From Candidatus Saccharimonadota bacterium (GTDB lineage Bacteria; Patescibacteriota; Patescibacteriia; 2-12-FULL-60-25), in contig OY970357.1 in the NCBI GenBank assembly GCA_963718585.1, positions 480,001-512,000 on the forward strand: a stretch of DNA of 32,000 bases, in the 5' to 3' direction. Position 1 is the first letter of the stretch; each line of letters starts with the position of its first letter. A program made the position numbers and the translations under genes. This document shows, piece by piece, positions 8,249 to 20,634 of this stretch. The notes beneath the pieces are model-generated. The model was not told the origin of the DNA and made no database searches. It saw only the letters and a list, made by a program, of their open reading frames with translations.

Positions 8249-8683
8249 TCACCAATCGAACGGGATCTGCTCGATGGGCAGATTCGAACCCTCCCCTTGC
8301 CGCCACGCCTCCGTCGGAACGTTCAAAACAAACGCGTCACTCTCTGACACGTTTTGAAAGGCGTACGCCACCCCAGGCGGGATGGTGAGCAGCCGATACT
8401 CCTCGTCCGTCGGCGCGAGGAACACCTCCTGCGTCTCCTCCTTCGTCGCGGAACCTTCCCGAAGGTCGCGCAGAACGAAGCGGATCCGACCGTGAGGCAC
8501 GGCCATGTTTCCGGTATTCGTCGTGTGCAATTTCCACCCTTTGATCACCCCCGGGGCGACCTGGGAGACGTATGTCTCACCGAATGAGGAAAAATACGGA
8601 TCGTCAGACCGGAGAACGCGATAGACCGCCCCACGATCGTCGCGGGCGATCTTGAGCGGCGTGATCGCGACCCCCTCGATCAT
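8249..8683 (-). CDS. RmlC-like cupin (sugar-nucleotide 3,5-epimerase-like), 144 aa
   Basis: MIEGVAITPLKIARDDRGAVYRVL...IKGWKLHTT...GRIRFVLRDLR...PPGVAYAF follows the RmlC/dTDP-sugar-isomerase pattern. Its ATG 8681-8683 lies 2 nt after the stop of the dehydratase gene. Confidence 0.7.
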   Translation of the reverse strand: MIEGVAITPLKIARDDRGAVYRVLRSDDPYFSSFGETYVSQVAPGVIKGWKLHTTNTGNMAVPHGRIRFVLRDLREGSATKEETQEVFLAPTDEEYRLLTIPPGVAYAFQNVSESDAFVLNVPTEAWRQGEGSNLPIEQIPFDW

Positions 8684-8685
8684 AC

Positions 8686-9729
8686 TCAGGACAATTGCGC
8701 GTCGCTCAATCCGGTCTCCGCAGCCTGCTTCTTCTTGAAGTAGTTCCGATACCACGCAACCGTCTCGGCCAATCCTTCATCCAACGTATATTGCGGTTTC
8801 CAGCCAAGCAGCTTCAAAGCCTTTTCACTCGACAATGTCTGTTCATGGATCTCCGCCTTTGCCTGATTGAGGATCTTCGGTTTGAGATCCGACCCCATCG
8901 CCTTGAGGATCGCATCCACGATCTTGATCACGTCCATGCCGTTTCCGGTCGAGAAGTTGAATGCCTGACCCACGATCTCCGGACGATCCATATTCTCCGC
9001 GAACGTCAGATACGCATTGGCCGCATCCCGGACGTAGAAATAGTCACGGATGAATTTTCCATCGCTACGGATCAGCGGTTCTTCATCGTGGATGATGTGC
9101 TTGATCGTCTCCGGCACGACGCGCTGCCAGTTGAGATCGCCCGGTCCATACAAATTCCCACAGCGCGTGACCCCCACCGGAAGCTTGTAGGTGTTGTAGT
9201 ACATCTGTGCGATGAGGTCGGTGCAGGATTTGGAAACATCGTACGGATGCGTGCCCTTGAGCGGCGCCTCTTCGGTGTACGGGAGCACGGGCTGAGGACC
9301 GTAGGCTTTGTCGGATGATGCGACGAGAACGCGGGTGATGAGCGGCGAGACGCGCGCGGCCTCGAGGACGTTGCACGTGCCCATGATGTTCGCGCGGAGT
9401 GTCGGGAGCGGAGCGCGATTGCCGACCGGCGCGATCGGCTGAGCGCCGACGTGGAATACCGTATCCACCTCGTATTCGTTCAACGCACGATACATGGTGA
9501 AATAATTCTCGAAATCACCATGCACGATGTTGATCGACTTGATGGCCGGCGTCTCGAAGAGACGGCTTGATGGCACATGATCGCGCTTGAGGACGGTCAC
9601 GCGCGCACCAGCCTCGTGCAGCATCTCAGCGATGTGCGATCCGAGGAGTCCGAAGGCGCCGGTGACGAAGACGCTGCGGTTGTTCCAGAACTTCTTCCGT
9701 TCCGGAGTCAGGAGGGATTTGGTGGCCAT
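8686..9729 (-). CDS. rfbG: NAD-dependent sugar-nucleotide 4,6-dehydratase, CDP-glucose 4,6-dehydratase-like (347 aa)
   Basis: KKFWNNRSVFVTGAFGLLGSHIAEML (FWxxxxVFVTG, as in RfbG). Also FHVGAQP, SSDKAYG, and PYDVSKSCTDL (YxxxK). It shares the island with rfbF. I start at internal ATG 9727-9729; the 121-codon upstream extension overlaps the next gene and is Arg/Ser-rich junk. Confidence 0.7.
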   Translation of the reverse strand: MATKSLLTPERKKFWNNRSVFVTGAFGLLGSHIAEMLHEAGARVTVLKRDHVPSSRLFETPAIKSINIVHGDFENYFTMYRALNEYEVDTVFHVGAQPIAPVGNRAPLPTLRANIMGTCNVLEAARVSPLITRVLVASSDKAYGPQPVLPYTEEAPLKGTHPYDVSKSCTDLIAQMYYNTYKLPVGVTRCGNLYGPGDLNWQRVVPETIKHIIHDEEPLIRSDGKFIRDYFYVRDAANAYLTFAENMDRPEIVGQAFNFSTGNGMDVIKIVDAILKAMGSDLKPKILNQAKAEIHEQTLSSEKALKLLGWKPQYTLDEGLAETVAWYRNYFKKKQAAETGLSDAQLS

Positions 9730-9777
9730 ATCTAGGTTCAAAACGTTGCCATGGAACTCTGAGACCGTCAACCGAGC

Positions 9778-9811
9778 AAAAAACACCCTCCCCGGACGAC
9801 CGAAGAGGGTG
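9778..9811 (-). terminator. Rho-independent terminator after the DUF218-like gene
   Basis: The minus strand reads CACCCTCTTCGG-TCGT-CCGGGGAGGGTG followed by TTTTTT. That gives a 12-bp stem (two G.U pairs) with a TCGT loop, 28 nt downstream of the stop at 9839. Confidence 0.65.
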
Positions 9812-9838
9812 AAGGGATGATCGGGAACCCCGAGGGAC

Positions 9839-10606
9839 TCACCCGATCTGGAAGTACTCGACCGCCTCCTGCGGGCGGAGATCGAGACACGTGCGGATGC
9901 ACGTCTCGCGCCAACCCATCCGGATCTTTTGGACCTCTGAAGACAGATCGATGCCCATGTTCCGCCCGATGCACTTGTGCAGGTCCGGTGAGAAACACAG
10001 GTCCGCGAATCGCACATCCGTCCCGAGCCACTGGACCTCCTCCCACCTTCCGAATGGCATGGGAATGAAGTGAGGACGGATGCCCGCATCACGGCATCCG
10101 TATCCGACGGTCGTGAGGTAGCGGGGCATGTGATAGAGCGGAGCGACCATGACGACCTGCTTCGCGTCGATCGCCTTGAGCCATGCCGGGATCAACTTCC
10201 CTTGATCCCCGGTATTATCACTGACGCCGTCGACGCTGATGCTCACAAATAACACGGACCGGTCATCGAGACGATCACCAACGAATTGCGCGAGCTGTAT
10301 CGCGGTCATTTCCCCGCAGGATGGCCGTTTGGCTCTTCGGCCGCTCACAAGGAGATCGACCTTCGTTTTCGTATCGACGTGCTGGCTCAAGAGCGACGTC
10401 ACCGGACCGAGTCCGCCGAAGCCCCCGGCATTGGTCCACGCGATCGCCCGAACGCCATCCATGGACCAACGCGGCACATGGACGTCCGTCGCCCAGACGA
10501 GGAATCTCAGGAACGCATCGGCGTCCACATCTGCTTCTTCGCACATGGCGCGGACATGCTCTTTGTACGGCGAGATGGCCGCATGAAAGGACGGATTTAC
10601 GATCAA
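9839..10606 (-). CDS. DUF218/YdcF-like (SanA/ElyC family) protein, 255 aa
   Basis: DLLVSGRR...GEMTAIQLAQFV...SDNTGDQG...QVVMVAPLYHMPRYL matches the YdcF-type pattern (SGG...E...S.NT.EN...VTS.yHm.R). I place the start at TTG 10604-10606, which has a perfect AGGAGG (10613-10618) 6 nt upstream. The ORF track opens at another TTG, 10648. Confidence 0.6.
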   Translation of the reverse strand: MIVNPSFHAAISPYKEHVRAMCEEADVDADAFLRFLVWATDVHVPRWSMDGVRAIAWTNAGGFGGLGPVTSLLSQHVDTKTKVDLLVSGRRAKRPSCGEMTAIQLAQFVGDRLDDRSVLFVSISVDGVSDNTGDQGKLIPAWLKAIDAKQVVMVAPLYHMPRYLTTVGYGCRDAGIRPHFIPMPFGRWEEVQWLGTDVRFADLCFSPDLHKCIGRNMGIDLSSEVQKIRMGWRETCIRTCLDLRPQEAVEYFQIG

Positions 10607-10650
10607 GGCACACCTCCTTTTTTTTGCAGCCTTGAGGAGCTGATTCAATC

Positions 10651-10678
10651 AAAAAAAGACCCGGTCGTCAACCGGATC
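10651..10678 (-). terminator. Rho-independent terminator/attenuator immediately after rfbF
   Basis: The minus strand reads GATCCGGT-TGACG-ACCGGGTC followed by TTTTTTT. This is an 8-bp stem including one G.U pair, and its 5' arm overlaps the rfbF TGA. Confidence 0.5.
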
Positions 10679-11501
10679 AGACCGTTTCCCAGATCCGCCA
10701 TTTAGGATCCGCCCGCCACATTTGTTCCAGATCGTTCTTGTCCTTGGCCGTGTCCATCGAATGCCAGAACCCTTCGTGCGGATACATGGCGATCTTCCGA
10801 TCCGCGGATGCATCGATGAGTGCCTCTTCGATCATCTGATCCTTTTTGCAATAGTTGAGGAAATCCTTATGCAGGACCATGAATCCACCGTTCGTCCAAT
10901 CCGGGAGGAGTGGTTTCTCCGTGAACGAATTCACGATATGGTCTGCATCAGGCACGACGAGGCCGTATTTGGATTTCGGATGGATGCCCGTGATCGTCCC
11001 GGAAATGCCATGTTTCCCCCGTTTGTCGCCATGGAACGTACGAAGCGCCGCGAGATCCACGTCCGCGACGCCATCGCCATAGGTCAGCATGAACTCGTCT
11101 GTATCGATGTACTTCGCCGCGCGCAACAGGCGCTCACCCGTCAGCGTGGAAAGTCCCGTGTCCGCGAACGTGATATTGAAATCATCGCCCGGGTCTTCGA
11201 GCATCGTCGTCTGGTTCGATCCGAGGTCAAGCCGGAAGTCACGCGTCAGATGACGGACGTTGATGAAATAATCCTTGATCTGGTCGCCGCGATAGCCGAG
11301 GCAGAGTATGAAATTCCGGTACCCCTGATGCGCATAGATCTTCATGACGTGCCATAAGATCGGCCGTCCGCCGACCTCCACCATGGGTTTGGGTTTGAAT
11401 TCCGTTTCCTCGCGCATGCGCGTCCCCATGCCGCCACACATGATGACGACGGGAATGGATTGACGGGAGGTGTTCTGCTCCATAAGATGCTGGCCAGTCA
11501 T
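10677..11501 (-). CDS. rfbF: Glucose-1-phosphate cytidylyltransferase (274 aa)
   Basis: VIMCGGMGTRMREETEFKPKPMVEVGGRPILWHVMKIYAHQGYRNFILCLGYRGDQIKDYF and ...GGFMVL...EGFWHSMDTAKDKNDLEQMW are both near-canonical RfbF sequence. Confidence 0.92.
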   Translation of the reverse strand: MTGQHLMEQNTSRQSIPVVIMCGGMGTRMREETEFKPKPMVEVGGRPILWHVMKIYAHQGYRNFILCLGYRGDQIKDYFINVRHLTRDFRLDLGSNQTTMLEDPGDDFNITFADTGLSTLTGERLLRAAKYIDTDEFMLTYGDGVADVDLAALRTFHGDKRGKHGISGTITGIHPKSKYGLVVPDADHIVNSFTEKPLLPDWTNGGFMVLHKDFLNYCKKDQMIEEALIDASADRKIAMYPHEGFWHSMDTAKDKNDLEQMWRADPKWRIWETV

Positions 11502-11510
11502 GACAGGCGC

Positions 11511-11539
11511 ATTCTACGGACCGCTTGCCCGACTGTCAA
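11511..11539 (-). promoter_or_regulatory. Consensus-grade sigma70 promoter for rfbF (TTGACA-17-TAGAAT)
   Basis: On the minus strand the -35 TTGACA is at 11539..11534, followed by a 17-nt spacer and the -10 TAGAAT at 11516..11511. Only 9 nt remain before ATG 11501, so the mRNA is near-leaderless. Confidence 0.6.
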
Positions 11540-11556
11540 ACCGGAAATTACGCGAA

Positions 11557-12441
11557 ATGGACCCAAAAACCGACCATCCGGACATCAGCGTGATCATCGT
11601 GAGCTGGAACGTCCGGGAGCTTCTCCGGGCCAATCTGACGCGACTCTTCTCGCTCAAGACCGATGCGAATATCGAGGTCTTTGTGGTCGACAATTATTCG
11701 CATGACGGCACGGCGTGGATGGTGCGGAAAGAATTTCCCCAGGTCCATCTCATCACGAATGCATGGGATGCAGGATTCGCCGGTCCGAACGACCAGGCGC
11801 TCCGGCTCGCGAAAGGCGACATCTGCATCTTGCTCAATCCGGACATGCTTGTCGATGAAGGCGCGTTCGAGCGCGCCGCCAAGGAGCTCATCCAAGACCG
11901 CGGTATCGGCGTGCTCGGGATCAAACTCATCGGCCAAAACGGAAAACCAGTGAGCAATGTCCGCCGCTTCCCGACCTTCGGTTCCCAACTCGCGATCCTC
12001 CTGAAACTCCAACACCTTTTTCCGAGCCTTGTCGCGCGGTACATGGCAACGGATTTCGATTATGACCGATCACAGGATGTGGATCAGGTCCGCGGATCCT
12101 TCTTCGCCTTTCGACGCGAAATGCTCGAACGCGTGGGCTATCTCGACGATGGCTATCATATCTGGTTCGAAGAAGTCGACTTTTGCAAACGGGTGAAGGC
12201 GAAAGGTTTGCGCGTCCGGTACTGCGCCGACGCACGGGCGCGTGATTACGTCGGAAAAAGTGCGTCGCAGATGTCACGATTGAGCGCTCAACGGATCTTC
12301 ACGGCGAGCATGGTCCGCTATTTCCGCAAATGGCACCCATCCTGGCAGGCGTATACCATCGCCGCTCTGAGACCCATCGCACTTGCGTCAGCCGCAGGAG
12401 CAGACGCCGTCACTTGGATGAAAAATAGGATGTTCGTATGA
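11557..12441 (+). CDS. GT2 glycosyltransferase, WbbL/rhamnosyltransferase-like (294 aa)
   Basis: ISVIIVSWN...VVDNYSHDGT...NAGFAGPNDQA...LLNPDMLVDEG...WFEEVDFCKRVKAKG. I start at internal ATG 11557. Its stop overlaps the next start in an ATGA at 12438-12441. Confidence 0.85.
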   Translation: MDPKTDHPDISVIIVSWNVRELLRANLTRLFSLKTDANIEVFVVDNYSHDGTAWMVRKEFPQVHLITNAWDAGFAGPNDQALRLAKGDICILLNPDMLVDEGAFERAAKELIQDRGIGVLGIKLIGQNGKPVSNVRRFPTFGSQLAILLKLQHLFPSLVARYMATDFDYDRSQDVDQVRGSFFAFRREMLERVGYLDDGYHIWFEEVDFCKRVKAKGLRVRYCADARARDYVGKSASQMSRLSAQRIFTASMVRYFRKWHPSWQAYTIAALRPIALASAAGADAVTWMKNRMFV

Positions 12442-14264
12442 AGGCCGCTCTCCAACTCTCCTGTTACAACGGCGGGCGGTATCTCCCCTATCTTTTCGCT
12501 TCCCTCAAACACCAGACGTTCCGCAACTGGGAATTACACGTCCTCGACAACGCCTCGGATGAGGAGAATGCAACTCTCATCCGATCCGCCGTGGAGAATG
12601 CCGGCTTCCCGATCATCCTTGATCGCGTTGATCAGAACATCGGATTCGCCGGCGCACATGACCGTCTCTTTTCTTCGCGATCTCCAGACGCAGAATACGC
12701 TGTCCTGTTGAATGATGACGCGATCCTTGAAAAAGATTTCCTCGAACGGCTGATCGCCTTTCTTGATTCGCATCCTGCGTGTGCATCTGCATCCGGGACG
12801 ATCCTCCGATGGGACTTCGACAAACGCGACGAACCGGATCAGGGGCGTACGGGCATCGTGGACTCCCTTGGCCTTGCGGTCGGATGGAATGGCTTCGTCA
12901 AAGACGTTGGCGCCGGTCTTCGTTTTTCCGAAGCGAACGCCCCACATACGCCAACAAAGATCTTCGGACCTTCCGGCTGTTTGCCCATCTATCGCGTGTC
13001 CGCTGTTCTTGCAACGAGCCCGGACGGCGCGCTCTTTGATGCCGCCTATGGCTCGTACAAAGAAGATACGGAACTTGCCTATCGTCTCCGTGCCGCTGGA
13101 TCCACATCCATGATCGTTCCAGATGCCGTCGCCTATCATCGTCGATCGTTCCGCGCCGGACAGACGAAACGGGCCGAACATCCGTATGCATACGAGTCGT
13201 TCCGCAATCACCTATGGATGGACCTCGTCCACCTTCCGATCGGTTCGCTCATGACCAACCGCTGTCTCGTCGTCCCGGCGGAATTGGCAAAGATCGCTTA
13301 TTGGAGCGTGAAACGTCCGTCATTCATCGCGCGTCTGTGGCAGGACACGTCCCGACGTTGGGACGACCTCATGCGCCGCCGCACCCATGCGGCACATCTC
13401 CGCGCTCATCGCGGTCGTCTCACTGCGCCCTACCCGAAACCCACGGCAGATATCAACATCGTCATCGTCTCGCATAATGAATTGAGCATTGAAACGCTTC
13501 GATCCGTACAGACCGCACGCGAGCGATTCCGCGGCACGACCGCACTCGTGGTCGTGGACAACGCATCGACCGAATACCGTGCGAATGAACTGATATCTTC
13601 CATCATTCCGGATGCATGGGTCCTCCTCCGCAACGGCGATCACGGATACGGCCGCTCCATGAACATGGGCGCGGACTGGGTGGACGCAAAAGCCTATTTC
13701 ATCCTCAATCCGGACACCTTGCTCGACGATCCGGAGATCCTCAACCGGCTGTGGGCGTATCTTGATTCCCACGCAGACGTCGGACTCGTGGGTCCAAAAC
13801 TGCTGAACTTCTCAGGTGAATTGCAGGACACCTGCCGCCGCTTCCCGGCCTGGTACCAGCCGCTCATCCAGCGCACCTCACTCAAGCAGACCGCGTTCGG
13901 AAAAAGATACCTTTCACATTTTCTCTTGAAAGACGCGGATCGGACACGCGACATGGATGTAGATTGGGTTCAGGGCTCGGCCATGTTCGCGCGCGGCGAC
14001 GTCTGGAAGAAGCTCGGCGGTTTCGATGATCGGTATTGGCTCTACTTCGAAGATATCGATCTTTGTCGACGGGTTTGGCATTCTGGAAAACGCGTGGTCT
14101 GCACCGTGGATACGCAACTGCGTCACGCGCACGGTCGGCAATCTGCGAAGATCCGCAACATGATCATGAATATCCTCAAGACCAAGGAGACGCGCGGTCA
14201 TCTCAACAGCTGGCGGAAATATCTCTGGAAGTGGAAATTCGTCTCACATCCCCGATCACAGTGA
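12438..14264 (+). CDS. Double-module GT2 glycosyltransferase (608 aa, two GT2 domains in tandem)
   Basis: Module 1: LSCYNGGRYLPYLFASLKHQT...VLDNASDEEN...GFAGAHD...LLNDDAILEKDF...YKEDTELAYRLRAAG. Module 2: INIVIVSHN...VVVDNASTEY...GYGRSMN...ILNPDTLLDD...YFEDIDLCRRVWHSG. Confidence 0.85.
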   Translation: MKAALQLSCYNGGRYLPYLFASLKHQTFRNWELHVLDNASDEENATLIRSAVENAGFPIILDRVDQNIGFAGAHDRLFSSRSPDAEYAVLLNDDAILEKDFLERLIAFLDSHPACASASGTILRWDFDKRDEPDQGRTGIVDSLGLAVGWNGFVKDVGAGLRFSEANAPHTPTKIFGPSGCLPIYRVSAVLATSPDGALFDAAYGSYKEDTELAYRLRAAGSTSMIVPDAVAYHRRSFRAGQTKRAEHPYAYESFRNHLWMDLVHLPIGSLMTNRCLVVPAELAKIAYWSVKRPSFIARLWQDTSRRWDDLMRRRTHAAHLRAHRGRLTAPYPKPTADINIVIVSHNELSIETLRSVQTARERFRGTTALVVVDNASTEYRANELISSIIPDAWVLLRNGDHGYGRSMNMGADWVDAKAYFILNPDTLLDDPEILNRLWAYLDSHADVGLVGPKLLNFSGELQDTCRRFPAWYQPLIQRTSLKQTAFGKRYLSHFLLKDADRTRDMDVDWVQGSAMFARGDVWKKLGGFDDRYWLYFEDIDLCRRVWHSGKRVVCTVDTQLRHAHGRQSAKIRNMIMNILKTKETRGHLNSWRKYLWKWKFVSHPRSQ

Positions 14265-14266
14265 AT

Positions 14267-15427
14267 ATGGAACTTCCCCGCGTCGCCATCATCTACCTGA
14301 CGTACAACGGCAAAGATTCGTACGAGGACATCACGCGCGTCTTCACATCACTGACCACACTCGACTATCCGCGCGACCGCGTAGAGATCATTTGCGTTGA
14401 GAATCCGTCCGCGCATGGCGCGAGCTGGCCATTCATCGAAAAAGAGTGGTACCCGCGCGTGGGCGTGGATTTTCCTGCCATTACGATCGAGAAGAACGAG
14501 AAGGATGGCGGATACTCCGGCGCGAATGATGTCGGCGCGCGCATTGCAAAGGAGCACGGGTGCGCGTATGTCTTTTTGCTCAACCAGGACACGGACATCG
14601 ATCCAAAGTTCCTCCGTGCCGCCGTGGAGCGCGCAGAATCCGACCCCAAGATCATGCTGGTCCAGTCATTGCTCCTGCTCGGACAGGACCGGAACCTGGT
14701 CAACTCGGTCGGCAACCGCTATCACTTCCTCGGCTTTGGCTATGCGGGCGGCAACGGTTGGACCGTGGATCAGGCACGGAGCTGGATCGAAACGGAACGG
14801 AAGACGAATCCGGACCTGGAAGTCCCGTACGTGAGCGGCGCCGCGGTACTCGTCCGCCTTTCCATGGTCGACCAGATCGGACTTTTTGATGCGCCGTTCT
14901 ACATGTACCACGAGGATGTGGACGCCACATTCAACGCGCGCATCCATGGATGGAAATCCGTTTTGGAACCTTCAAGCGTCGTGTATCACTACTACGCGTT
15001 CTCCAAGAGCATCAAGAAATTCTACTGGATGGAGCGGAACCGCTTCATGGTGGATCTCACGTATTACAAACTCCTCACTCTGCTCCTCATGGCTCCCGCC
15101 TTCTTCGGGGTGGAATGTGCGAGCATGCTCTTCGCGATCAAGGGTGGCTGGTGGCGCGAAAAAGGCCGTGCATGGGCTTTTTATTGGCGCCCATCGACGT
15201 GGGCGTGGGTCGCAAAGCGCCGATCCCGCGCGATGAAGGAACGCATCATCTCCGATCGGGAATTCTTGAAATGGGCGGACAGCAAGATCCTCTTTCAGGA
15301 ACAGTCACCCGGTGACAGCGACAATGCGTCGCTCAAAAAAGACGTCGGCGGCTCACTGGTCCAGCGCGTCGCCAATCCCCTTCTCACCGCGTACTGGAAA
15401 CTGATCTACACCCTGATCCGCTGGTGA
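14267..15427 (+). CDS. GT2 glycosyltransferase with C-terminal membrane segment (386 aa)
   Basis: VAIIYLTYNGKDS...ICVENPS...GGYSGANDVG...FLLNQDTDIDPKF...MYHEDVDATFNARIHG, with TM LLTLLLMAPAFFGVECASMLFAI. I start at internal ATG 14267, 2 nt after the previous stop. Confidence 0.85.
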   Translation: MELPRVAIIYLTYNGKDSYEDITRVFTSLTTLDYPRDRVEIICVENPSAHGASWPFIEKEWYPRVGVDFPAITIEKNEKDGGYSGANDVGARIAKEHGCAYVFLLNQDTDIDPKFLRAAVERAESDPKIMLVQSLLLLGQDRNLVNSVGNRYHFLGFGYAGGNGWTVDQARSWIETERKTNPDLEVPYVSGAAVLVRLSMVDQIGLFDAPFYMYHEDVDATFNARIHGWKSVLEPSSVVYHYYAFSKSIKKFYWMERNRFMVDLTYYKLLTLLLMAPAFFGVECASMLFAIKGGWWREKGRAWAFYWRPSTWAWVAKRRSRAMKERIISDREFLKWADSKILFQEQSPGDSDNASLKKDVGGSLVQRVANPLLTAYWKLIYTLIRW

Positions 15428-16828
15428 TCAGATGTCGAATCCGAATCGGTTCAATATCTCCACCGCCTCCAGGTTCTCGGACAGTTCCGGATAGCGGTAA
15501 TCGTCTTTGTCATACGGCGTGGACCCGAGCCCGAGAAACGTGGTCCGCACATCCGTCAACGGGACATAGGTATGATAGACCCCGGCCGGGACACGCAGTC
15601 TCGGCATTTTTTCATTCGTCTCCAGCGTAAAGACCGGAACATCGTGCGACGTATCTGGCGCATCGATCCCCAGGATCACGCCGACGGTCTTGCCTCTGGT
15701 CGGAGAATCTACGCGAAGATCAGACAGGATCCATAACCCGACACCGGACATCGGCACGAACAATTCATGCAAAACAGGATGATAATGGCCGCCACGGAAC
15801 ACGCCGCGCCCTTTGGCGGATGTCGCATAGATATCCTGCAGATCGTGGCCGAATCCCGCGGAGTTCCGCGTGCCGCCTGGAAGGACATGTAAGACCGCGC
15901 CCGCCTCATCTCCGATCCGCGGTTGGAGCTCGACCGCAACGCCGCCGATCCCCAACGCGTGCCATGTTGGCGTGAATGGCGGTGGTGACGAATGCAGGTA
16001 TTCGCGTAATGCCTCTTTCCAGTCCCGCATCTTCGGTAGTTTTGTTGATGTCAGCACGCTGTAATCCGGACGTGCGGCCGGACGTTTGAGTGATGACGGA
16101 TCGCGCGGCGCAAACTCTACCGGGAGATCAAGGATCTTCCCGATCTCGCACGCCCACTCATGCCACGTGGCACCGCCTTCATTCGTCATGTGATAGACCC
16201 CCGGCGCTGGGCGTTGTTTCAAGAAATGTTCATCGAGATGACGCGCGACGTCATCTACATATGTTGGCGCGGACCGTTCCCCGCTGTTCACCAGCACGCG
16301 TGCCGCTTTTTGTGCATCATTCACGATGATCTCAACGAAACTCGGCTTGGATCCCGGTTCATCCGCCATCGGCCCATACAGACGAGAGAGACGGATCACG
16401 TAGGCGTCCGTATTTTCACGGAGCACTGCCTGTTCGCCCGCGAGCTTGGACGCGCCATAGACGCTGATCGGATCCGTTGCATCATCTTCCACGTACGGCG
16501 TGTCCGATGTCCCGTTAAATACATAATCTGACGAGAAGTGGATGAACCCCATCCCAAGCCGCTTTGTGGTCTCCGCAAGCATCTTCGGCATCTCGCCATT
16601 GAGCCGCATGGCGATAGCTCTGCCATCCCCCTCCGCACCATCGACATTGTTGTAGGCAACGCAATTGATAGCCATTTCCGGAGCTTCGGTGCGTAAAAAC
16701 GCCTCGACCGCCTGAGGGTCAAGGTGATCGAAGGCATCCGGCGCCGGAGCGACCACCTCATGATGTGGCCACGATCGACGCATGGCGCTCCCAAGACGCC
16801 CGGAACCACCTAATATCACGATCTTCAT
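15428..16828 (-). CDS. Fusion protein: RmlD-like sugar-nucleotide 4-reductase (N-terminal ~285 aa) + cupin/RmlC-WxcM-like domain (C-terminal ~175 aa), 466 aa
   Basis: N-terminal part: MKIVILGGSGRLGSAM...INCVAYNNVDGAE...HFSSDYVFNG...PISVYGASKLAGEQ...VIRLSRLYG, which is the RmlD pattern with YxxxK. C-terminal part: IGGVAVELQPRIGDEAGAVLHVL...FRGGHYHPVLHELFVPMSGVGLWIL...VPAGVYHTY, which is a cupin. Confidence 0.8.
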   Translation of the reverse strand: MKIVILGGSGRLGSAMRRSWPHHEVVAPAPDAFDHLDPQAVEAFLRTEAPEMAINCVAYNNVDGAEGDGRAIAMRLNGEMPKMLAETTKRLGMGFIHFSSDYVFNGTSDTPYVEDDATDPISVYGASKLAGEQAVLRENTDAYVIRLSRLYGPMADEPGSKPSFVEIIVNDAQKAARVLVNSGERSAPTYVDDVARHLDEHFLKQRPAPGVYHMTNEGGATWHEWACEIGKILDLPVEFAPRDPSSLKRPAARPDYSVLTSTKLPKMRDWKEALREYLHSSPPPFTPTWHALGIGGVAVELQPRIGDEAGAVLHVLPGGTRNSAGFGHDLQDIYATSAKGRGVFRGGHYHPVLHELFVPMSGVGLWILSDLRVDSPTRGKTVGVILGIDAPDTSHDVPVFTLETNEKMPRLRVPAGVYHTYVPLTDVRTTFLGLGSTPYDKDDYRYPELSENLEAVEILNRFGFDI

Positions 16829-16859: not shown

Positions 16860-17270
16860 TCAACCAATGGAACTTCGGATCTTTTCCGCGATCTGCTCCG
16901 CCTCACCTTCAGCGTAGGGCCTCCCGGGCCAATGTTTCAATCCATCGTCTGCCCGACGCGGCACAACATGCACATGAAGATGCGCGATCACCTGGCCTGC
17001 GATCGCACCATTATTCTCTTCGAGATTGAACGCCTCACAGATCCCGCTTGTCACAAGAGCCCTTGAAACCGACTGCGTTGCACGGATGAGCCGATCCAAT
17101 GTTTCCGTGTCCGCCGCATTGAATCCTTCTACGTGCACCTTCGGCACAACGAGGACGTGCCCCGGATTCACGGGATTGATATCGAGGAACGCGTAGATAT
17201 GATCATCTTCGTACACGGACGTGGACGGGATCTCTTTGGCGATGATCTTGCAAAAAAGGCAGTCAGACAT
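16860..17270 (-). CDS. HIT-family (Hint-like) nucleotide hydrolase/transferase (136 aa)
   Basis: CLFCKIIAKEIPS...DINPVNPGHVLVVPK...GQVIAHLHVHVVPR (the histidine triad HxHxHxx). Confidence 0.9.
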   Translation of the reverse strand: MSDCLFCKIIAKEIPSTSVYEDDHIYAFLDINPVNPGHVLVVPKVHVEGFNAADTETLDRLIRATQSVSRALVTSGICEAFNLEENNGAIAGQVIAHLHVHVVPRRADDGLKHWPGRPYAEGEAEQIAEKIRSSIG

Positions 17271-17282
17271 ATGGGATGATGA

Positions 17283-17645
17283 TCACTCTGTTCTACCGAA
17301 GATGGCGACAAGCGACAAGACGGCGATGACGCCATAGGCACCGAGGAGCACCAGTCCGCTCAACCCCAACGCATTGATGCGTGTCCACAGAAAGAACCCG
17401 CCGAACAGCAACGCAAGCGCGATGAACACGACTTGGAGGATCTGTGACACGCGTCCTGTTTCCGACGGCATCGCAGCAGACGCGACGAGGAGTGCGGCAA
17501 CGACGATCCCCGTATCCGGCAGATCAAGGAACGGGGAGACTGACCCGGGAAGCAAACGTTCCAAAACGAGCAAGAGGACATAGCCACACGTCGCGGCTGC
17601 GGCCGCATGGAAAAAGGATCGCTGGAGAAAATGCTTCAGGGTCAT
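17283..17645 (-). CDS. Small 4-TM membrane protein (120 aa), unknown family
   Basis: I start at ATG 17643-17645 (MTLKHFLQ...), which forms an ATGA overlap with the stop of the upstream gene. There are four hydrophobic segments. I recognise no family motif. Confidence 0.6.
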   Translation of the reverse strand: MTLKHFLQRSFFHAAAAATCGYVLLLVLERLLPGSVSPFLDLPDTGIVVAALLVASAAMPSETGRVSQILQVVFIALALLFGGFFLWTRINALGLSGLVLLGAYGVIAVLSLVAIFGRTE

Positions 17646-19093
17646 AACCGGTGCCATGCATTCGCCAATTCCTGACGAAGGATCTTCCACCAATCTCCAA
17701 AGGTCACAGCCTGACGATGGAAGGTCAGATCGATCTTTCGGATGTCGATCGCCCCGGCGCGTGCCATGAGGCCTGGTGCGGACACCACGAAACGCAGATT
17801 ATCGAGCGTCGGGTCCACGGTGAAGCTTCCCGTATATCGATACCACCCGTCACCAAGCGCCTGCGGACGCGTGTACGGCGTCAGGACCGCGGTGATCCCG
17901 TCTCGCTCCAACTGCGTCCCATCTGACATCCGTCGCGGACGCGGTTCAAAGAACGCATCTTGTCGCAAGGCGAAAAACCCATCGCCGACGAATCGGACAT
18001 CCCCTTTTTCCGCAGAAAGTTCCACCGGCGTGGTGATGTCATCGGTCCGGTCAAGGCGGATCTGCGTATGCGTTGCCGGTATGCGTCCAGATGTCGGTCC
18101 AAGATCCACCTGTTGGAGACCCTCTACATGGAATGTCTCGGCCACGATATGGCGTGAATTGGTCCATGCGATCGCCGGCGAAGTGGTCGCGGAATAGCCG
18201 ACCAGATCACCGAACACGAGACGCGGTCCTACGACCCACCGACGACTATCTGTCTCGATCGCGCGGATGAAGACATCGTCTTGTGCCGTGATGCTGATCC
18301 GATAGATGCCTACGTCCGCGTTCGGGACATCGACCGTGTGTGTGAAGGCGGCCCCCATCGTCGCATCACGACTCCCGGACAAAGTGACCGTCTCTCGCGA
18401 GATCTCCGTATCATCGCGGAACACGCGGATCGCGGCGACATCCCCTCCCGTTGTCCGATTCACTGCCTGAAGCGTGAACGTCATATGCACATGGCCATCC
18501 GGAACGATCCAAAAATCATGCGAGCCGCGTAACGAAACCACGGTTTTGACGCTCGGCCCAGGCGGATCCGCGATGTTCGGCCACGAGGCGGTCGCATCCC
18601 AGACCGCAAGACCACGCGTATCCGGGTTCGAGAGACGGACGGGCAGCGTTCCCTGTTTGACGTATCCGGACATCGCCCCTGATATCACCGGGGTCCAAGC
18701 AGCTGACGCAAGTTCGGAGGAATACATGGGCTGAAGTTCCAGATCTTGCCCAGCTGCATCACGCACGATCCCGAAATCCGCCAATGGCTGTCGGATCGGA
18801 CGAAACTCCATCGAAACATCCACCTTTTCGTACGGGCCGGGGGCATGCACCGTAAAATAGACTGGATCCGCCGTGATCCGCTGACCGGTCCACCCATCCG
18901 CCTGGACGCCCGGACTCGTCGTCCGCAACGCAGGCAAAAAAGGCATGATCCACGCACTCTTTCCATCAACGTCCGATGAAGCATGAAAAACCCCGGATGG
19001 CGGAAACCGAAGCAGAACGAGCCACCCCACACCAAACGCCACGATGATCCATGGCAGAGCAAAGAGGACGGAAACGAGTCGTGGAAGCTTCAT
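17642..19093 (-). CDS. N-terminally anchored extracytoplasmic protein (483 aa), no recognisable domain
   Basis: N-terminal TM LVSVLFALPWIIVAFGVGWLVLL followed by ~450 aa of beta-strand-like sequence (e.g. HMTFTLQAVNRTTGGDVAAIRVFRDD, IYRISITAQDDVFIRAIE). It is ATGA-coupled on both sides (19090-19093 and 17642-17645). Confidence 0.7.
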   Translation of the reverse strand: MKLPRLVSVLFALPWIIVAFGVGWLVLLRFPPSGVFHASSDVDGKSAWIMPFLPALRTTSPGVQADGWTGQRITADPVYFTVHAPGPYEKVDVSMEFRPIRQPLADFGIVRDAAGQDLELQPMYSSELASAAWTPVISGAMSGYVKQGTLPVRLSNPDTRGLAVWDATASWPNIADPPGPSVKTVVSLRGSHDFWIVPDGHVHMTFTLQAVNRTTGGDVAAIRVFRDDTEISRETVTLSGSRDATMGAAFTHTVDVPNADVGIYRISITAQDDVFIRAIETDSRRWVVGPRLVFGDLVGYSATTSPAIAWTNSRHIVAETFHVEGLQQVDLGPTSGRIPATHTQIRLDRTDDITTPVELSAEKGDVRFVGDGFFALRQDAFFEPRPRRMSDGTQLERDGITAVLTPYTRPQALGDGWYRYTGSFTVDPTLDNLRFVVSAPGLMARAGAIDIRKIDLTFHRQAVTFGDWWKILRQELANAWHRL

Positions 19094-20634
19094 GGATTCA
19101 ATGAAGACGCAATGTACATCGTCTGATCCCCCGCGACAAAGACCGGATCCAGGCCGATCCCATCATCCGAGAACGACGCGATCCGATCATCCGTCAGCGT
19201 CTGGCTATAAAGATAGACCGGGTCCCCGTTGTTGATCTCCGCAAGCAGCTTGCCATTCCCCGGAAGCGGGCTTGCTGAACGGAAGACCGGAAAAAAGATC
19301 TTATCGCTTCGTTCAGAGACCACGACCGCGTCTGGTGAGAGCGTTTGCTCGGCCGCATCACGGATCGCTCCGTACCCGGAAAGCTCCACCAGGGACTGTC
19401 GAATGCCTTCATCATCGCGCACCGTCGCGGTCCATACGCCATACGAAACGATCAGCAAACAAAGTACTGCGACAAGCAAACCAGAACCTTTCTTCATCTT
19501 TTGTCGCAAAACATGGACGAGACCGGCGGCAGCCATCGCAAACACCGGCGCGAGCGGGATCACATACCGTAAGAAAGAGTTCGCCGTAGACACCACGTTC
19601 ACTCCGACGTGATCCTGATAGATCGCCTCGCCATACATCGCTGCCAGGACCACAAACGTCCATGCACCGATAACGACTGCCGGCCGCCAGGACTTCTTCC
19701 ACAGACTCACGACCGCCGCGCCGACCGCTAGTGCGCTCCAAGGCCCTAAAATGGCGCCGAGATACCAATAGACATTGAAAAAGACGTCGCGCGGATGGAC
19801 CCCGAACGGCCACGATGCCGCCGTACGCGCGATCGCGGGGCCTGCAGATACAGCTGCCGCGATCGGATCATGGAGAAAGTATCCGATCGTGAACGGCGCT
19901 CCATACGTCATCCACGCAACCACACCGACGGCCGCGCCGACGAGCGCCGTTGCGATGATGAAGACGATGAAGGCCACGCGTTCCTTCCGTTGCGGCATCT
20001 TCGTCTCACGCAGGTGCCACGCGAGCCAGAGCCACGGGATCAACCAAAAAAGCTCGACCGGACGGATCGCGATCGCGAGTCCGCAGGCGATTCCAGCGCC
20101 AGCCATCCTGAAGGGATCTCGTTTGGACCAGATCAAATAGGCCGCCCAAACGGCGAGACAGACGACAGGCAGATTCGGGAACAGCCCTCGATTCGCGTAT
20201 AAGATCACGGTCGGATGTGCCAACCAAACGGTCACCGCCGCGATCGCCGGCCAGCGCCCAAAACGTTTTCCCCAGACCCAAATGGGATACGCCGTGATCA
20301 GGACGAGAAAAGCGGTGAAATAGGCCAATGCGAGATCTCCAAGAAAGAAATGCAAGACCCCAAGGATGAACGGCAGACCAAGGAAACCGACCGGGACGAT
20401 CCAACCTCCGCTCGTCACATAACTCCGCGGATGCAGCCACGGGGAGACGTCCGATGAGGGTTCCGCGATCCGCATTGCGCCGGTCGCAGAAAAGACACGA
20501 GCGGAAACCGCGTTCGCCGTCTCGTCCGGGCTCAAAAAAGCGCGCGTTCCCTGCGCGGGGATCATCGTATAAAGCGCGGCGCAAAGCGCGATCAACGCGG
20601 CCGCGATGGGGATGGCCAACCAATGGCGACGCAT
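19090..20634 (-). CDS. GT-C fold membrane glycosyltransferase (ArnT/PMT/GT39-like), 514 aa
   Basis: There are 10 or more hydrophobic helices. An acidic SPDE motif sits in the first extracytoplasmic loop, right after TM1, as in GT-C enzymes. A C-terminal ~110-aa soluble tail follows. Confidence 0.7.
   Translation of the reverse strand: MRRHWLAIPIAAALIALCAALYTMIPAQGTRAFLSPDETANAVSARVFSATGAMRIAEPSSDVSPWLHPRSYVTSGGWIVPVGFLGLPFILGVLHFFLGDLALAYFTAFLVLITAYPIWVWGKRFGRWPAIAAVTVWLAHPTVILYANRGLFPNLPVVCLAVWAAYLIWSKRDPFRMAGAGIACGLAIAIRPVELFWLIPWLWLAWHLRETKMPQRKERVAFIVFIIATALVGAAVGVVAWMTYGAPFTIGYFLHDPIAAAVSAGPAIARTAASWPFGVHPRDVFFNVYWYLGAILGPWSALAVGAAVVSLWKKSWRPAVVIGAWTFVVLAAMYGEAIYQDHVGVNVVSTANSFLRYVIPLAPVFAMAAAGLVHVLRQKMKKGSGLLVAVLCLLIVSYGVWTATVRDDEGIRQSLVELSGYGAIRDAAEQTLSPDAVVVSERSDKIFFPVFRSASPLPGNGKLLAEINNGDPVYLYSQTLTDDRIASFSDDGIGLDPVFVAGDQTMYIASSLNP

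Follow-up and report, generated by a model that had tools for sequence, protein, structure and literature searches.

A fused RmlD-type reductase and RmlC/CapF-like cupin as a candidate bifunctional epimerase/4-reductase in a Saccharimonadota glycan cluster

Is a single open reading frame of a Candidatus Saccharimonadota bacterium, in which an RmlD-like reductase runs on into a cupin, a genuine two-domain enzyme, and which chemistry would its cupin half perform? The gene lies in a 32,000-nucleotide window (the whole stretch of DNA analysed here; contig OY970357.1, positions 480,001 to 512,000, assembly GCA_963718585.1), to which all coordinates refer (Table 1). It runs on the minus strand from an ATG start to the TGA at 15428–15430, encodes 466 amino acids, and contains all the sequence motifs that had been quoted for it in the first-pass annotation: GGSGRLGS (7–14), SSDYVFNG (99–106), YGASKLAGE (124–132), RGGHYHPVLHELFVPMSGVGLWIL (345–368) and VPAGVYHTY (413–421).

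Table 1 Features of the fusion gene and its surroundings in the window
Feature	Position	Strand	Basis or remark
Whole fusion gene, protein P0001	15428..16828	(-)	466 codons + TGA; nine full-length homologues, 45–73% identity
RmlD-type NAD(P)H 4-ketoreductase domain, residues 1–280	15989..16828	(-)	PF04321, TIGR01214, 1vl0
Pro-rich linker SPPPFTPTW, residues 281–289	15962..15988	(-)	Alignment A1; split junction in L014
RmlC/CapF-like cupin domain (cupin B), residues 290–466	15431..15961	(-)	AF2, Foldseek, VIA, profiles, hhalign
Cupin motif 1, R345-G-G-H348-Y-H350-x4-E355-x6-G362	15743..15796	(-)	Conservation, RmlC/WbjC alignment
Cupin motif 2, P414-A-G416-V-Y-H419	15572..15589	(-)	Conservation, RmlC/WbjC alignment
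Y439-D-K-D-D443-Y444	15497..15514	(-)	RmlC Tyr133 position; YDxxDY common to FdtA/QdtA
Separate short cupin of 144 aa (P0193, cupin A)	8249..8683	(-)	Resembles PDB 3ejk
NDP-glucose 4,6-dehydratase	8686..9729	(-)	Best model CDP-glucose 4,6-dehydratase
Sugar-1-phosphate nucleotidyltransferase	10677..11501	(-)	Best model glucose-1-P cytidylyltransferase
Three GT2 glycosyltransferase genes, four GT2 modules	11470..15427	(+)	Pfam; converge on fusion gene
HIT (HinT-like) gene	16860..17270	(-)	PF01230 E 4.5e-27; same operon, directly upstream of fusion gene

The layout recognized at first inspection, an RmlD-like domain and a cupin in one polypeptide, is common to nine other full-length proteins, which our survey of the domain fusion aligned over their full length, linker included, at 45–73% identity. 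RmlD and cupin B are fused in 12 sequences and encoded by adjacent, overlapping genes at four loci (L014, L012, L024 and L025), the RmlD gene of the split relatives ending just past the conserved Trp of the linker. Fused and split forms are interleaved in the tree (P0126 is sister to P0125), so that fusion or fission must have happened two or more times. The fusion gene is thus genuine, its two halves having been recurrently fused or split. The chance that a sequencing or assembly frameshift joined two separate genes is negligible: close relatives (G013 and G020, also L024 and L025) do encode the halves in two overlapping genes, with a stop codon directly past the conserved Trp, but the alignment of ten fused sequences, independent and from different samples, is unbroken across the conserved linker, the same 469-codon open frame recurs in a genome of the same genus (G001), and split and fused junctions lie about 16 nt apart rather than one base. 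We rejected the artefact on these three observations; the genome, moreover, is one 1.08-Mb contig and 100% complete.

The N-terminal half is of RmlD type. Residues 1–279 match Pfam RmlD_sub_bind (PF04321) with an E value of 3e-65 (220.6 bits, cut-off 27) and score 208–210 bits against the TIGR01214 equivalog, just under its cut-off of 224, and the half aligns with the solved RmlD 1vl0 at E 1.8e-58. The Rossmann motif GGSGRLG (7–13), S99/S100 and Y124-x3-K128 are invariant in the ten fusions and coincide with the 1vl0 motifs. Genome-wide, TIGR01214 matched this half alone at E≤1e-30, and by these profile scores it is the genome's sole strong RmlD-type 4-ketoreductase, with reduction by NAD(P)H predicted.

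Single-sequence searches of the PDB and Pfam were too weak to place the C-terminal half, cupin B, for which profiles were required. Alone, it stayed below the cut-offs of PF00908 (RmlC; 22.6–26.5 bits, cut-off 27), TIGR01221 (16.9 bits, cut-off 155.75) and PF05523 (FdtA/QdtA; 17.9 bits, cut-off 23), whereas the profile of its family reached solved RmlC, WbcA and FdtA at E 4e-9 to 1e-8. With hhalign, cupin B aligned to canonical RfbC at E 2e-12 and to WbjC of E. coli O26 at 95.9% probability (E 5e-9). A further model, PF14667, is listed in papers as a Wzx flippase domain; because the E. coli WbjC cupin matches it at 153 bits and the window's own flippase does not match, we take it as a model of CapF-type cupins. 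It touches 31 of the 45 cupin B family members (best E 4.8e-8) and gave no match to P0001 itself at E≤0.01. The family is small and unnamed, matching 74 of 1.84 billion cluster representatives and no protein in a sample of 400 genomes from the phylum.

An AF2 model of the domain, built from 45 sequences, is an RmlC-like cupin with a pLDDT of 95.5; it replaces the cupin of an earlier full-length model from a 10-sequence alignment, which was unusable (pLDDT 33–80). Structural comparison of the kind suggested in the first-pass annotation placed cupin B among nucleotide-sugar enzymes, the top matches in Foldseek and VIA all being NDP-sugar 3-, 5- or 3,5-epimerases or 3,4-ketoisomerases. The best VIA match is the uncharacterised 3ejk (Z 19.0); RmlC, MlghB, WbcA and ChmJ follow at Z ~16. 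RmlC-type 1dzr aligned over 159 residues (Z 16.4, rmsd 2.5 Å), many RmlC-type epimerases scored Z 15–17 and ketoisomerases Z 13–15. The likeness to RmlC, WbcA, ChmJ, EvaD, NovW and MlghB/DdahB extends over the whole domain (Z ~16, rmsd 2.4–3.1 Å, 153–162 residues). CapF is absent among the best 50 matches listed by Foldseek or VIA, an absence that is no evidence of differing folds.

Within this fold, cupin B keeps the RmlC family's catalytic His and its RG-x-H and D-x-R-x-x-S-x-T motifs, with H348 aligning to catalytic His63, Y439 to catalytic Tyr133 and H419 to H120 as well as to the His of the WbjC motif VPGWTH. It departs from RmlC in having Glu (E355) at the position of Lys73, in missing the segment that bears Asp170 and in a shorter C-terminus. 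Among the 45 family members, R345, H348 and H350 are each conserved in 44, E/D355 in 43, G362 and D370 in all, H419 in 41 and D443 in 43; the position of Y439 holds Tyr in 35, Phe in five and His in five, and because of these replacements of the Tyr133 equivalent a plain RmlC mechanism cannot apply to every member of the family. H348, H350, E355 and H419 occupy the four canonical cupin metal positions, matching RGGHYH..E and PGWTH of WbjC, so that the search for metal-binding His residues proposed at the outset yielded a full tetrad. The tetrad is no proof of metal binding, because FdtA/QdtA share the HxH pair and the His and are not known to use a metal. An ungapped profile match sets H348/H350 on H288/H290 of CapF, which are located at the CapF Zn site (PMC5393024). 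The Zn ions placed in the predicted cupin B complex were unscored and have no bearing on the metal site. Between metal-assisted, CapF-like chemistry at the tetrad and a metal-free, RmlC-like His/Tyr mechanism, we lean by a narrow degree towards the former.

Conservation of this kind bears on whether cupin B is an enzyme at all. It might instead be a non-catalytic module that dimerizes RmlD, or senses nucleotide sugars and regulates it, with cupin A or the dehydratase performing the epimerization, a reading that we consider improbable. Consistent with it, Lys73 and Asp170 of RmlC are missing, a separate cupin adjoins the dehydratase, and a cupin B homodimer was predicted with a score of 0.83 (best of three controls 0.00). 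Among proteins of solved structure, 20 of 30 same-chain pairs and one of 23 single chains attain this mark; the pass may reflect mere likeness, because RmlC dimers have already been solved. At least 95% of contacts are common to the runs, partner pLDDT is at least 90, and the predicted interface pairs strands as in RmlC. Against a pure scaffold, H348, H350, E/D355, H419, D370 and D443 are near-invariant even in distant members, which would be unusual, and cupin A has none of the RmlC catalytic residues (His, Lys, His120 and Tyr). At locus L026, a nucleotidyltransferase and a dehydratase precede a more distant RmlD::HxH-cupin fusion, and none of the remaining genes in those 19 kb matches the RmlC family (PF00908); the fused cupin there appears, from gene content, to be the epimerase of that pathway. 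The near-invariant polar pocket of cupin B favours a role in binding a ligand or in catalysis over one as a scaffold. In several relatives of the class, an HxH-type short cupin, a few kilobases from RmlD, is the only cupin match found with profile A3.

The HxH pair also invites comparison with FdtA/QdtA. Were cupin B a 3,4-ketoisomerase of that type, it would shift the keto group to position C3, leaving the RmlD-like domain to reduce a 3-keto sugar or act on another intermediate. The pair aligns to His49/His51 of FdtA, which we take to have catalytic roles; the VYH...YDxxDY half is closer to FdtA/QdtA than to RmlC (2pa7, E 1.2e-8; 4zu7, E 5.8e-8), a likeness that includes the WH/YH motif and the C-terminal YDxxDY; and PF05523 touches 21 of the 45 members. 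Even so, we judge this very unlikely: structural Z scores are about 16–19 to epimerases and 13–15 to ketoisomerases, the alignment to canonical RfbC is stronger, cupin B is longer N-terminally than FdtA/QdtA, and it is partnered in the genome by a 4-ketoreductase, which matches RmlD structures at E 1e-58, and not by an aminotransferase. The scanned cluster genes of the window include no aminotransferase or other enzyme that uses a 3-keto sugar, and the known 3-ketoreductases fall in families other than RmlD.

The genomic setting points to the supply of a 4-keto sugar. The first-pass annotation had put the fusion gene in a 'GT-C' operon apart from the other pathway genes. The GT-C label is loosely supported, the first gene of that operon having a single, sub-threshold PIG-M match (E 0.011), and the fusion gene does not stand apart: the nucleotidyltransferase, dehydratase and short cupin are 3.9–7 kb from it, all in a block whose synteny is kept across relatives. 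The glycosyltransferase trio recurs in L010, L024 and L025, and the HIT gene likewise stands directly upstream of RmlD in L024. The fusion gene belongs to one conserved glycan cluster. Its nucleotidyltransferase scores 256 bits against TIGR02623 (cut-off 300), 67 bits against the next family and at most 30 bits against RmlA models, and its dehydratase 185 bits against TIGR02622 and 152 bits against the dTDP-type model, both under their cut-offs; from these sub-threshold equivalog scores, the cluster nucleotide is probably CDP.

The stand-alone cupin A is present where it had been reported, and the suggestion that the two cupins may differ in role gains from the differences between their active-site residues. 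In relative L010, cupin A is fused to the dehydratase (P0216). No similarity links cupin A to WbuC, the cupin metalloprotein of L-FucNAc clusters. As an alternative location of the activity, cupin A could be the real epimerase.

Taken with its surroundings, the fusion protein is, in the reading that we favour with moderate confidence, a bifunctional dimer, epimerase and 4-reductase in one, that would act on an NDP-4-keto-6-deoxyhexose; the epimerase is possibly metal-dependent and the pathway looks CDP-based. The cluster's 4,6-dehydratase would supply the 4-keto sugar, the C-terminal cupin B would epimerize it beside the keto group, at C3 and/or C5, and the N-terminal RmlD domain would then reduce C4 with NAD(P)H, so that one protein, probably dimerizing through its cupin domains as in RmlC and CapF, would carry the final steps in the synthesis of a nucleotide-activated 6-deoxyhexose, in a pathway of rhamnose type. 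Channelling of the 4-keto intermediate by the fusion is plausible. The labour may be divided between the cupins, with one epimerization per SDR–cupin module, or cupin B may perform both. More speculatively, and in our view rather doubtfully, a metal-dependent CapF-type epimerase cupin on a true RmlD would form part of a two-module CDP-glucose route (dehydratase with cupin A, then cupin B with reductase, each pair being fused in some relatives) to a CDP-activated 6-deoxy-L-hexose for a CPR surface glycan; if true, this would be an undescribed CDP-6-deoxy-L-hexose, such as CDP-L-rhamnose.

The comparison with CapF made in the first-pass annotation stands in part. Like CapF/WbjC-FnlB (S. aureus; E. 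coli O26, P. aeruginosa O11), the fusion has an N-terminal SDR and a C-terminal cupin, shares the four canonical metal positions within RGGHYH-x4-E and PxGxxH, and is proposed to epimerize and then reduce C4; in CapF/WbjC the Zn cupin epimerizes ahead of SDR reduction, and CapF is a homodimer (PMC5393024), as is predicted for cupin B. The SDR half is where the likeness fails, being a full, true RmlD; the CapF match to it reaches only E 7e-4, and no individual segment of that match passes by itself. Cupin B is also longer than the CapF/WbjC cupin, RmlC-like, with an N-terminal strand and a DxRxxSxT hairpin, and is nearer to RfbC than to WbjC. The CapF substrate is a UDP-2-acetamido sugar, whereas the fusion's cluster looks CDP-glucose-based.

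It is true, as first stated, that RmlC and RmlD are normally separate, but fusions have already been documented: one preprint gives RmlC-RmlD fusions of 441–494 amino acids in about 1% of bacterial RmlC/RmlD matches (bioRxiv 10.1101/854612), and Prymnesium parvum RmlCD was shown to make NDP-L-rhamnose (PMC6556577). The published proteins likewise join a cupin epimerase and an RmlD reductase of consecutive steps in one polypeptide and are named RmlC-RmlD or RmlCD; the gene described here has RmlD first and the cupin second. Cupin B differs from them as a non-canonical RmlC, with Glu for Lys73, an extra His350 and sub-cut-off PF00908 and TIGR01221 scores. The fusion is thus a modest variation on known two-enzyme fusions and overturns no principle.

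Its interest lies in the cupin, a small branch combining an RmlC-type fold with a CapF-type metal motif and genetically tied to RmlD through fused or overlapping genes, which offers a way to test how the metal-free epimerases of the RmlC type connect to the Zn-dependent cupin of CapF. For proteins that are now nameless or generically named it provides a solid functional clue to annotation, and with its cytidylyltransferase-like and CDP-dehydratase-like neighbours the gene suggests an uncharacterised route by which ultra-small, uncultured bacteria would make nucleotide sugars for their surface glycans. Some members of the cupin B family are fused to sugar-1-phosphate nucleotidyltransferases.

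The RmlD–cupin fusion is real. All of the motifs by which the first-pass annotation had recognized an RmlD-like reductase joined to a cupin are found in the open reading frame at the residues it gave, and when 5.8 billion proteins were searched, nine matched over the full length (P0002–P0010; 45–73% identity, 96–100% query coverage), the matches ranking next being stand-alone RmlD proteins of about 285 amino acids, two of them with the source names Patescibacteria and Planctomycetota. Alignment of the ten fusions is unbroken across the Pro-rich linker, where F285, P287 and W289 are conserved. The source genome is a single contig of 1.08 Mb with a completeness score of 100%, and the same open frame, at 469 codons, is present in a genome of the same genus; that the fusion is an artefact is exceedingly improbable.

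Positions of the fusion gene and of the cluster features discussed in the text
Feature	Position	Strand	Remark
Fusion gene (RmlD::cupin B)	15428–16828	–	466 codons
Cupin A (stand-alone short cupin)	8249–8683	–	3ejk-like, E 1e-23
Stretch between nucleotidyltransferase and dehydratase core	9730–10676		about 0.95 kb; GC skew becomes positive
ORF of 269 aa within this stretch	9839–10648	–	just a DUF218 hint, E 0.012
Alternative, extended dehydratase ORF	8686–10092		140-aa N-terminal extension
Abutting stops of GT2 and fusion genes	15425–15430	+/–	TGA (+) and TCA (TGA on –); palindrome TGATCA
HinT-like HIT gene	16860–17270	–	immediately upstream of RmlD
Three conserved operon partners (514, 483, 136 aa)	17283–20634	–	without family assignment

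Pfam RmlD_sub_bind covers residues 1–279 (E 3e-65), and NCBIfam rmlD scores 208 bits, slightly below the equivalog threshold of 224. A profile built from the fusion proteins matches solved RmlD structures at E-values from 1.8e-58 (1vl0) to 1e-27, aligning the Rossmann motif, an STDYVFDG-like block and the YxxxK block, and matches the SDR of CapF only at 7e-4. Given these structural matches, and because the sole TIGR01214 match in the genome at E ≤ 1e-30 is this N-terminal half, it is on sequence grounds the organism's predicted RmlD-type 4-ketoreductase.

Cupin B (residues 290–466) belongs to a small family. In a single-sequence scan of the fusion protein, the Pfam RmlC match to residues 295–387 is sub-threshold (E 9e-5; 22.6 bits, cut-off 27), and a ten-domain C-terminal profile run against 1.84 billion cluster representatives yielded just 74 matches with E ≤ 1e-3, of which 48 reach E ≤ 1e-10. 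Most are stand-alone proteins of about 180 amino acids; in some, RmlD and cupin are fused (P0126 and, more distantly related, P0168 and P0175). Source names, looked up for ten family proteins and neighbours, were absent for eight and generic only for two. In an alignment of 45 family members, PF00908 matches 33, PF14667 31 and PF05523 21, PF14667 being verified as a CapF-type cupin model by its 153 bits on residues 254–363 of the CapF homologue WbjC. The alignment profile matches WbcA (3.7e-9), RmlC (6.8e-9), FdtA (1.2e-8), QdtA (5.8e-8) and CapF (4.5e-3); hhalign gives E 2.3e-12 for E. coli O26 RfbC and 5.2e-9 for E. coli O26 WbjC. Structural neighbours of the AlphaFold model built on this alignment (pLDDT 95.5; Foldseek and VIA-align) are, among the matches listed, exclusively NDP-sugar epimerases/isomerases: the uncharacterised 3ejk (Z 19.0, r.m.s.d. 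2.5 Å, 154 residues aligned), RmlC, MlghB, WbcA, ChmJ, EvaD and NovW (Z 15–17), and the ketoisomerases FdtD and QdtA (Z 13–15). A 3,4-ketoisomerase activity for cupin B is decidedly unlikely. Two of the 74 family proteins, metagenomic sequences of 560–570 amino acids (P0132 and P0142, from Parcubacteria-type metagenomes), have a domain of this family fused at the N terminus of a sugar-1-phosphate nucleotidyltransferase whose tail is a left-handed beta-helix, joining non-consecutive pathway steps.

Aligned with E. coli RfbC, H348 and Y439 fall on the catalytic His63 and Tyr133 of RmlC, and H350, E355 and H419 on its Gln65, Lys73 and His120; the RmlC Asp170 segment has no counterpart in cupin B in this alignment. 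Among the 45 family members, D370 is invariant, R345, H348 and H350 are each conserved in 44, D443 in 43 and H419 in 41, while position 355 is Glu in 34 and Asp in 9, and position 439 Tyr in 35, Phe in 5 and His in 5. The pattern G-x5-H-x-H-x4-E-x6-G together with P-x-G-x2-H makes up the canonical metal signature of cupins with its two motifs, and an ungapped profile match places H348 and H350 on CapF His288 and His290, the latter a Zn ligand (PMC5393024). In the corresponding columns WbjC has the identical RGGHYH..E, and PGWTH. The His/Glu tetrad suggests a metal site but does not prove one, because FdtA and QdtA share the HxH and later His and are not known to use a metal.

Predicted in two copies, cupin B pairs with a score of 0.83 (best of three controls, 0.00), at least 95% of contacts agreeing between runs and partner pLDDT being at least 90, through strands 308–321 and 327–339; of 30 proteins solved as one-chain pairs 20 attained this mark, and of 23 with single-chain structures 1 did. 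Since RmlC dimers have already been solved, this pass may reflect mere likeness. CapF is itself a homodimer (PMC5393024). A non-catalytic dimerisation or regulatory role for cupin B seems unlikely.

The best-supported reading is that of a predicted bifunctional epimerase/4-reductase, in which cupin B would act on an NDP-4-keto-6-deoxyhexose and the RmlD domain would reduce C4; we hold more loosely that the cupin chemistry is metal-assisted as in CapF. CapF/WbjC share domain order and cupin motif with the fusion protein and differ in SDR type. RmlCD fusions are described in 69 of 21,964 genomes (bioRxiv 10.1101/854612), built from matches to standard RmlC and RmlD profiles and following the same logic, and that of P. 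parvum is biochemically characterised (PMC6556577). Epimerase–reductase fusion is already known from CapF/WbjC and RmlCD, and our protein is a variant thereof.

The fusion gene ends a minus-strand operon (514-aa membrane protein, 483 aa, 136 aa, HIT, RmlD::cupin) and is convergent with three GT2 genes, past which lie three more pathway genes. No base separates the GT2 and fusion genes, so that a terminator would not fit between these operons. The nucleotidyltransferase and dehydratase (8686–11501, minus strand) best match CDP-glucose models, not RmlA/RmlB: glucose-1-phosphate cytidylyltransferase TIGR02623 at 256 bits (cut-off 300; next family 67) and CDP-glucose 4,6-dehydratase TIGR02622 at 185 bits versus 152 for the dTDP type, both under equivalog cut-offs. 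These models would imply that the 6-deoxyhexose is CDP-activated and that its synthesis involves no 3-deoxygenation genes; CDP as the pathway nucleotide is likewise held more loosely. Cupin A starts two bases downstream of the dehydratase and lacks all four RmlC catalytic/substrate residues, with Lys, Asn, Tyr and Trp in place of His63, Lys73, His120 and Tyr133, and KGWKLH where RmlC has RGLHxQ.

The nucleotidyltransferase and dehydratase are 40 nt apart in the related locus L024, and the stretch between them here may be an insertion. The HIT gene also immediately precedes RmlD in L024 (7728–8156) and lies elsewhere within the cluster in L025; this nucleotide-handling enzyme, kept in a nucleotide-sugar cluster, may have a pathway role. 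The sole match of the 514-aa protein is a sub-threshold PIG-M mannosyltransferase (GT-C; E 0.011), and L024 encodes in the same place proteins of matching size (540, 489 and 113 aa) that all lack Pfam matches.

The whole cluster block recurs in relatives, with the same PEGA, S41-protease and NUDIX flanks in L024 and L025. In these loci and in genomes G013 and G020, RmlD and cupin B are separate genes overlapping by 13–32 nt, RmlD stopping a few codons past the conserved Trp. A maximum-likelihood tree places all 12 fused and four split sequences in one clade (support 100/98), within which the sister of fused P0126 is the split P0125; fusion or fission therefore took place at least twice. Another relative (L010) carries two fusions, RmlD::cupin B and a dehydratase with cupin A at its C terminus (P0216, 510 aa; L010:1474–3006, minus strand); each of the pathway's two SDR enzymes can thus bear a cupin of its own, and two SDR–cupin modules may share the epimerisations, a view also held more loosely. 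The more distant locus L026 contains a three-gene operon of nucleotidyltransferase, dehydratase and RmlD::HxH-cupin, with no RmlC-family match in any other gene of the locus.

Cupin B occurs (E ~1e-68) in 4 of 25 species representatives of the genome's own family, exactly the four with a cytidylyltransferase-like gene; six other members have RmlD and neither of these genes. This co-occurrence is co-inheritance of one cluster and no independent evidence. Across the phylum, 400 evenly sampled genomes gave no cupin B match at E ≤ 1e-20. Near stand-alone RmlD genes in five further loci (L016, L019, L021, L017 and L023, of G039, G035, G031, G037 and G040), short cupins of about 150–165 amino acids carry FHYHEKQDD or RGPHEHKAQSD (HxH then an acid), not the canonical RGLHxQ...K, and cupins of the HxH type may usually take the place of RmlC in bacteria of the class.
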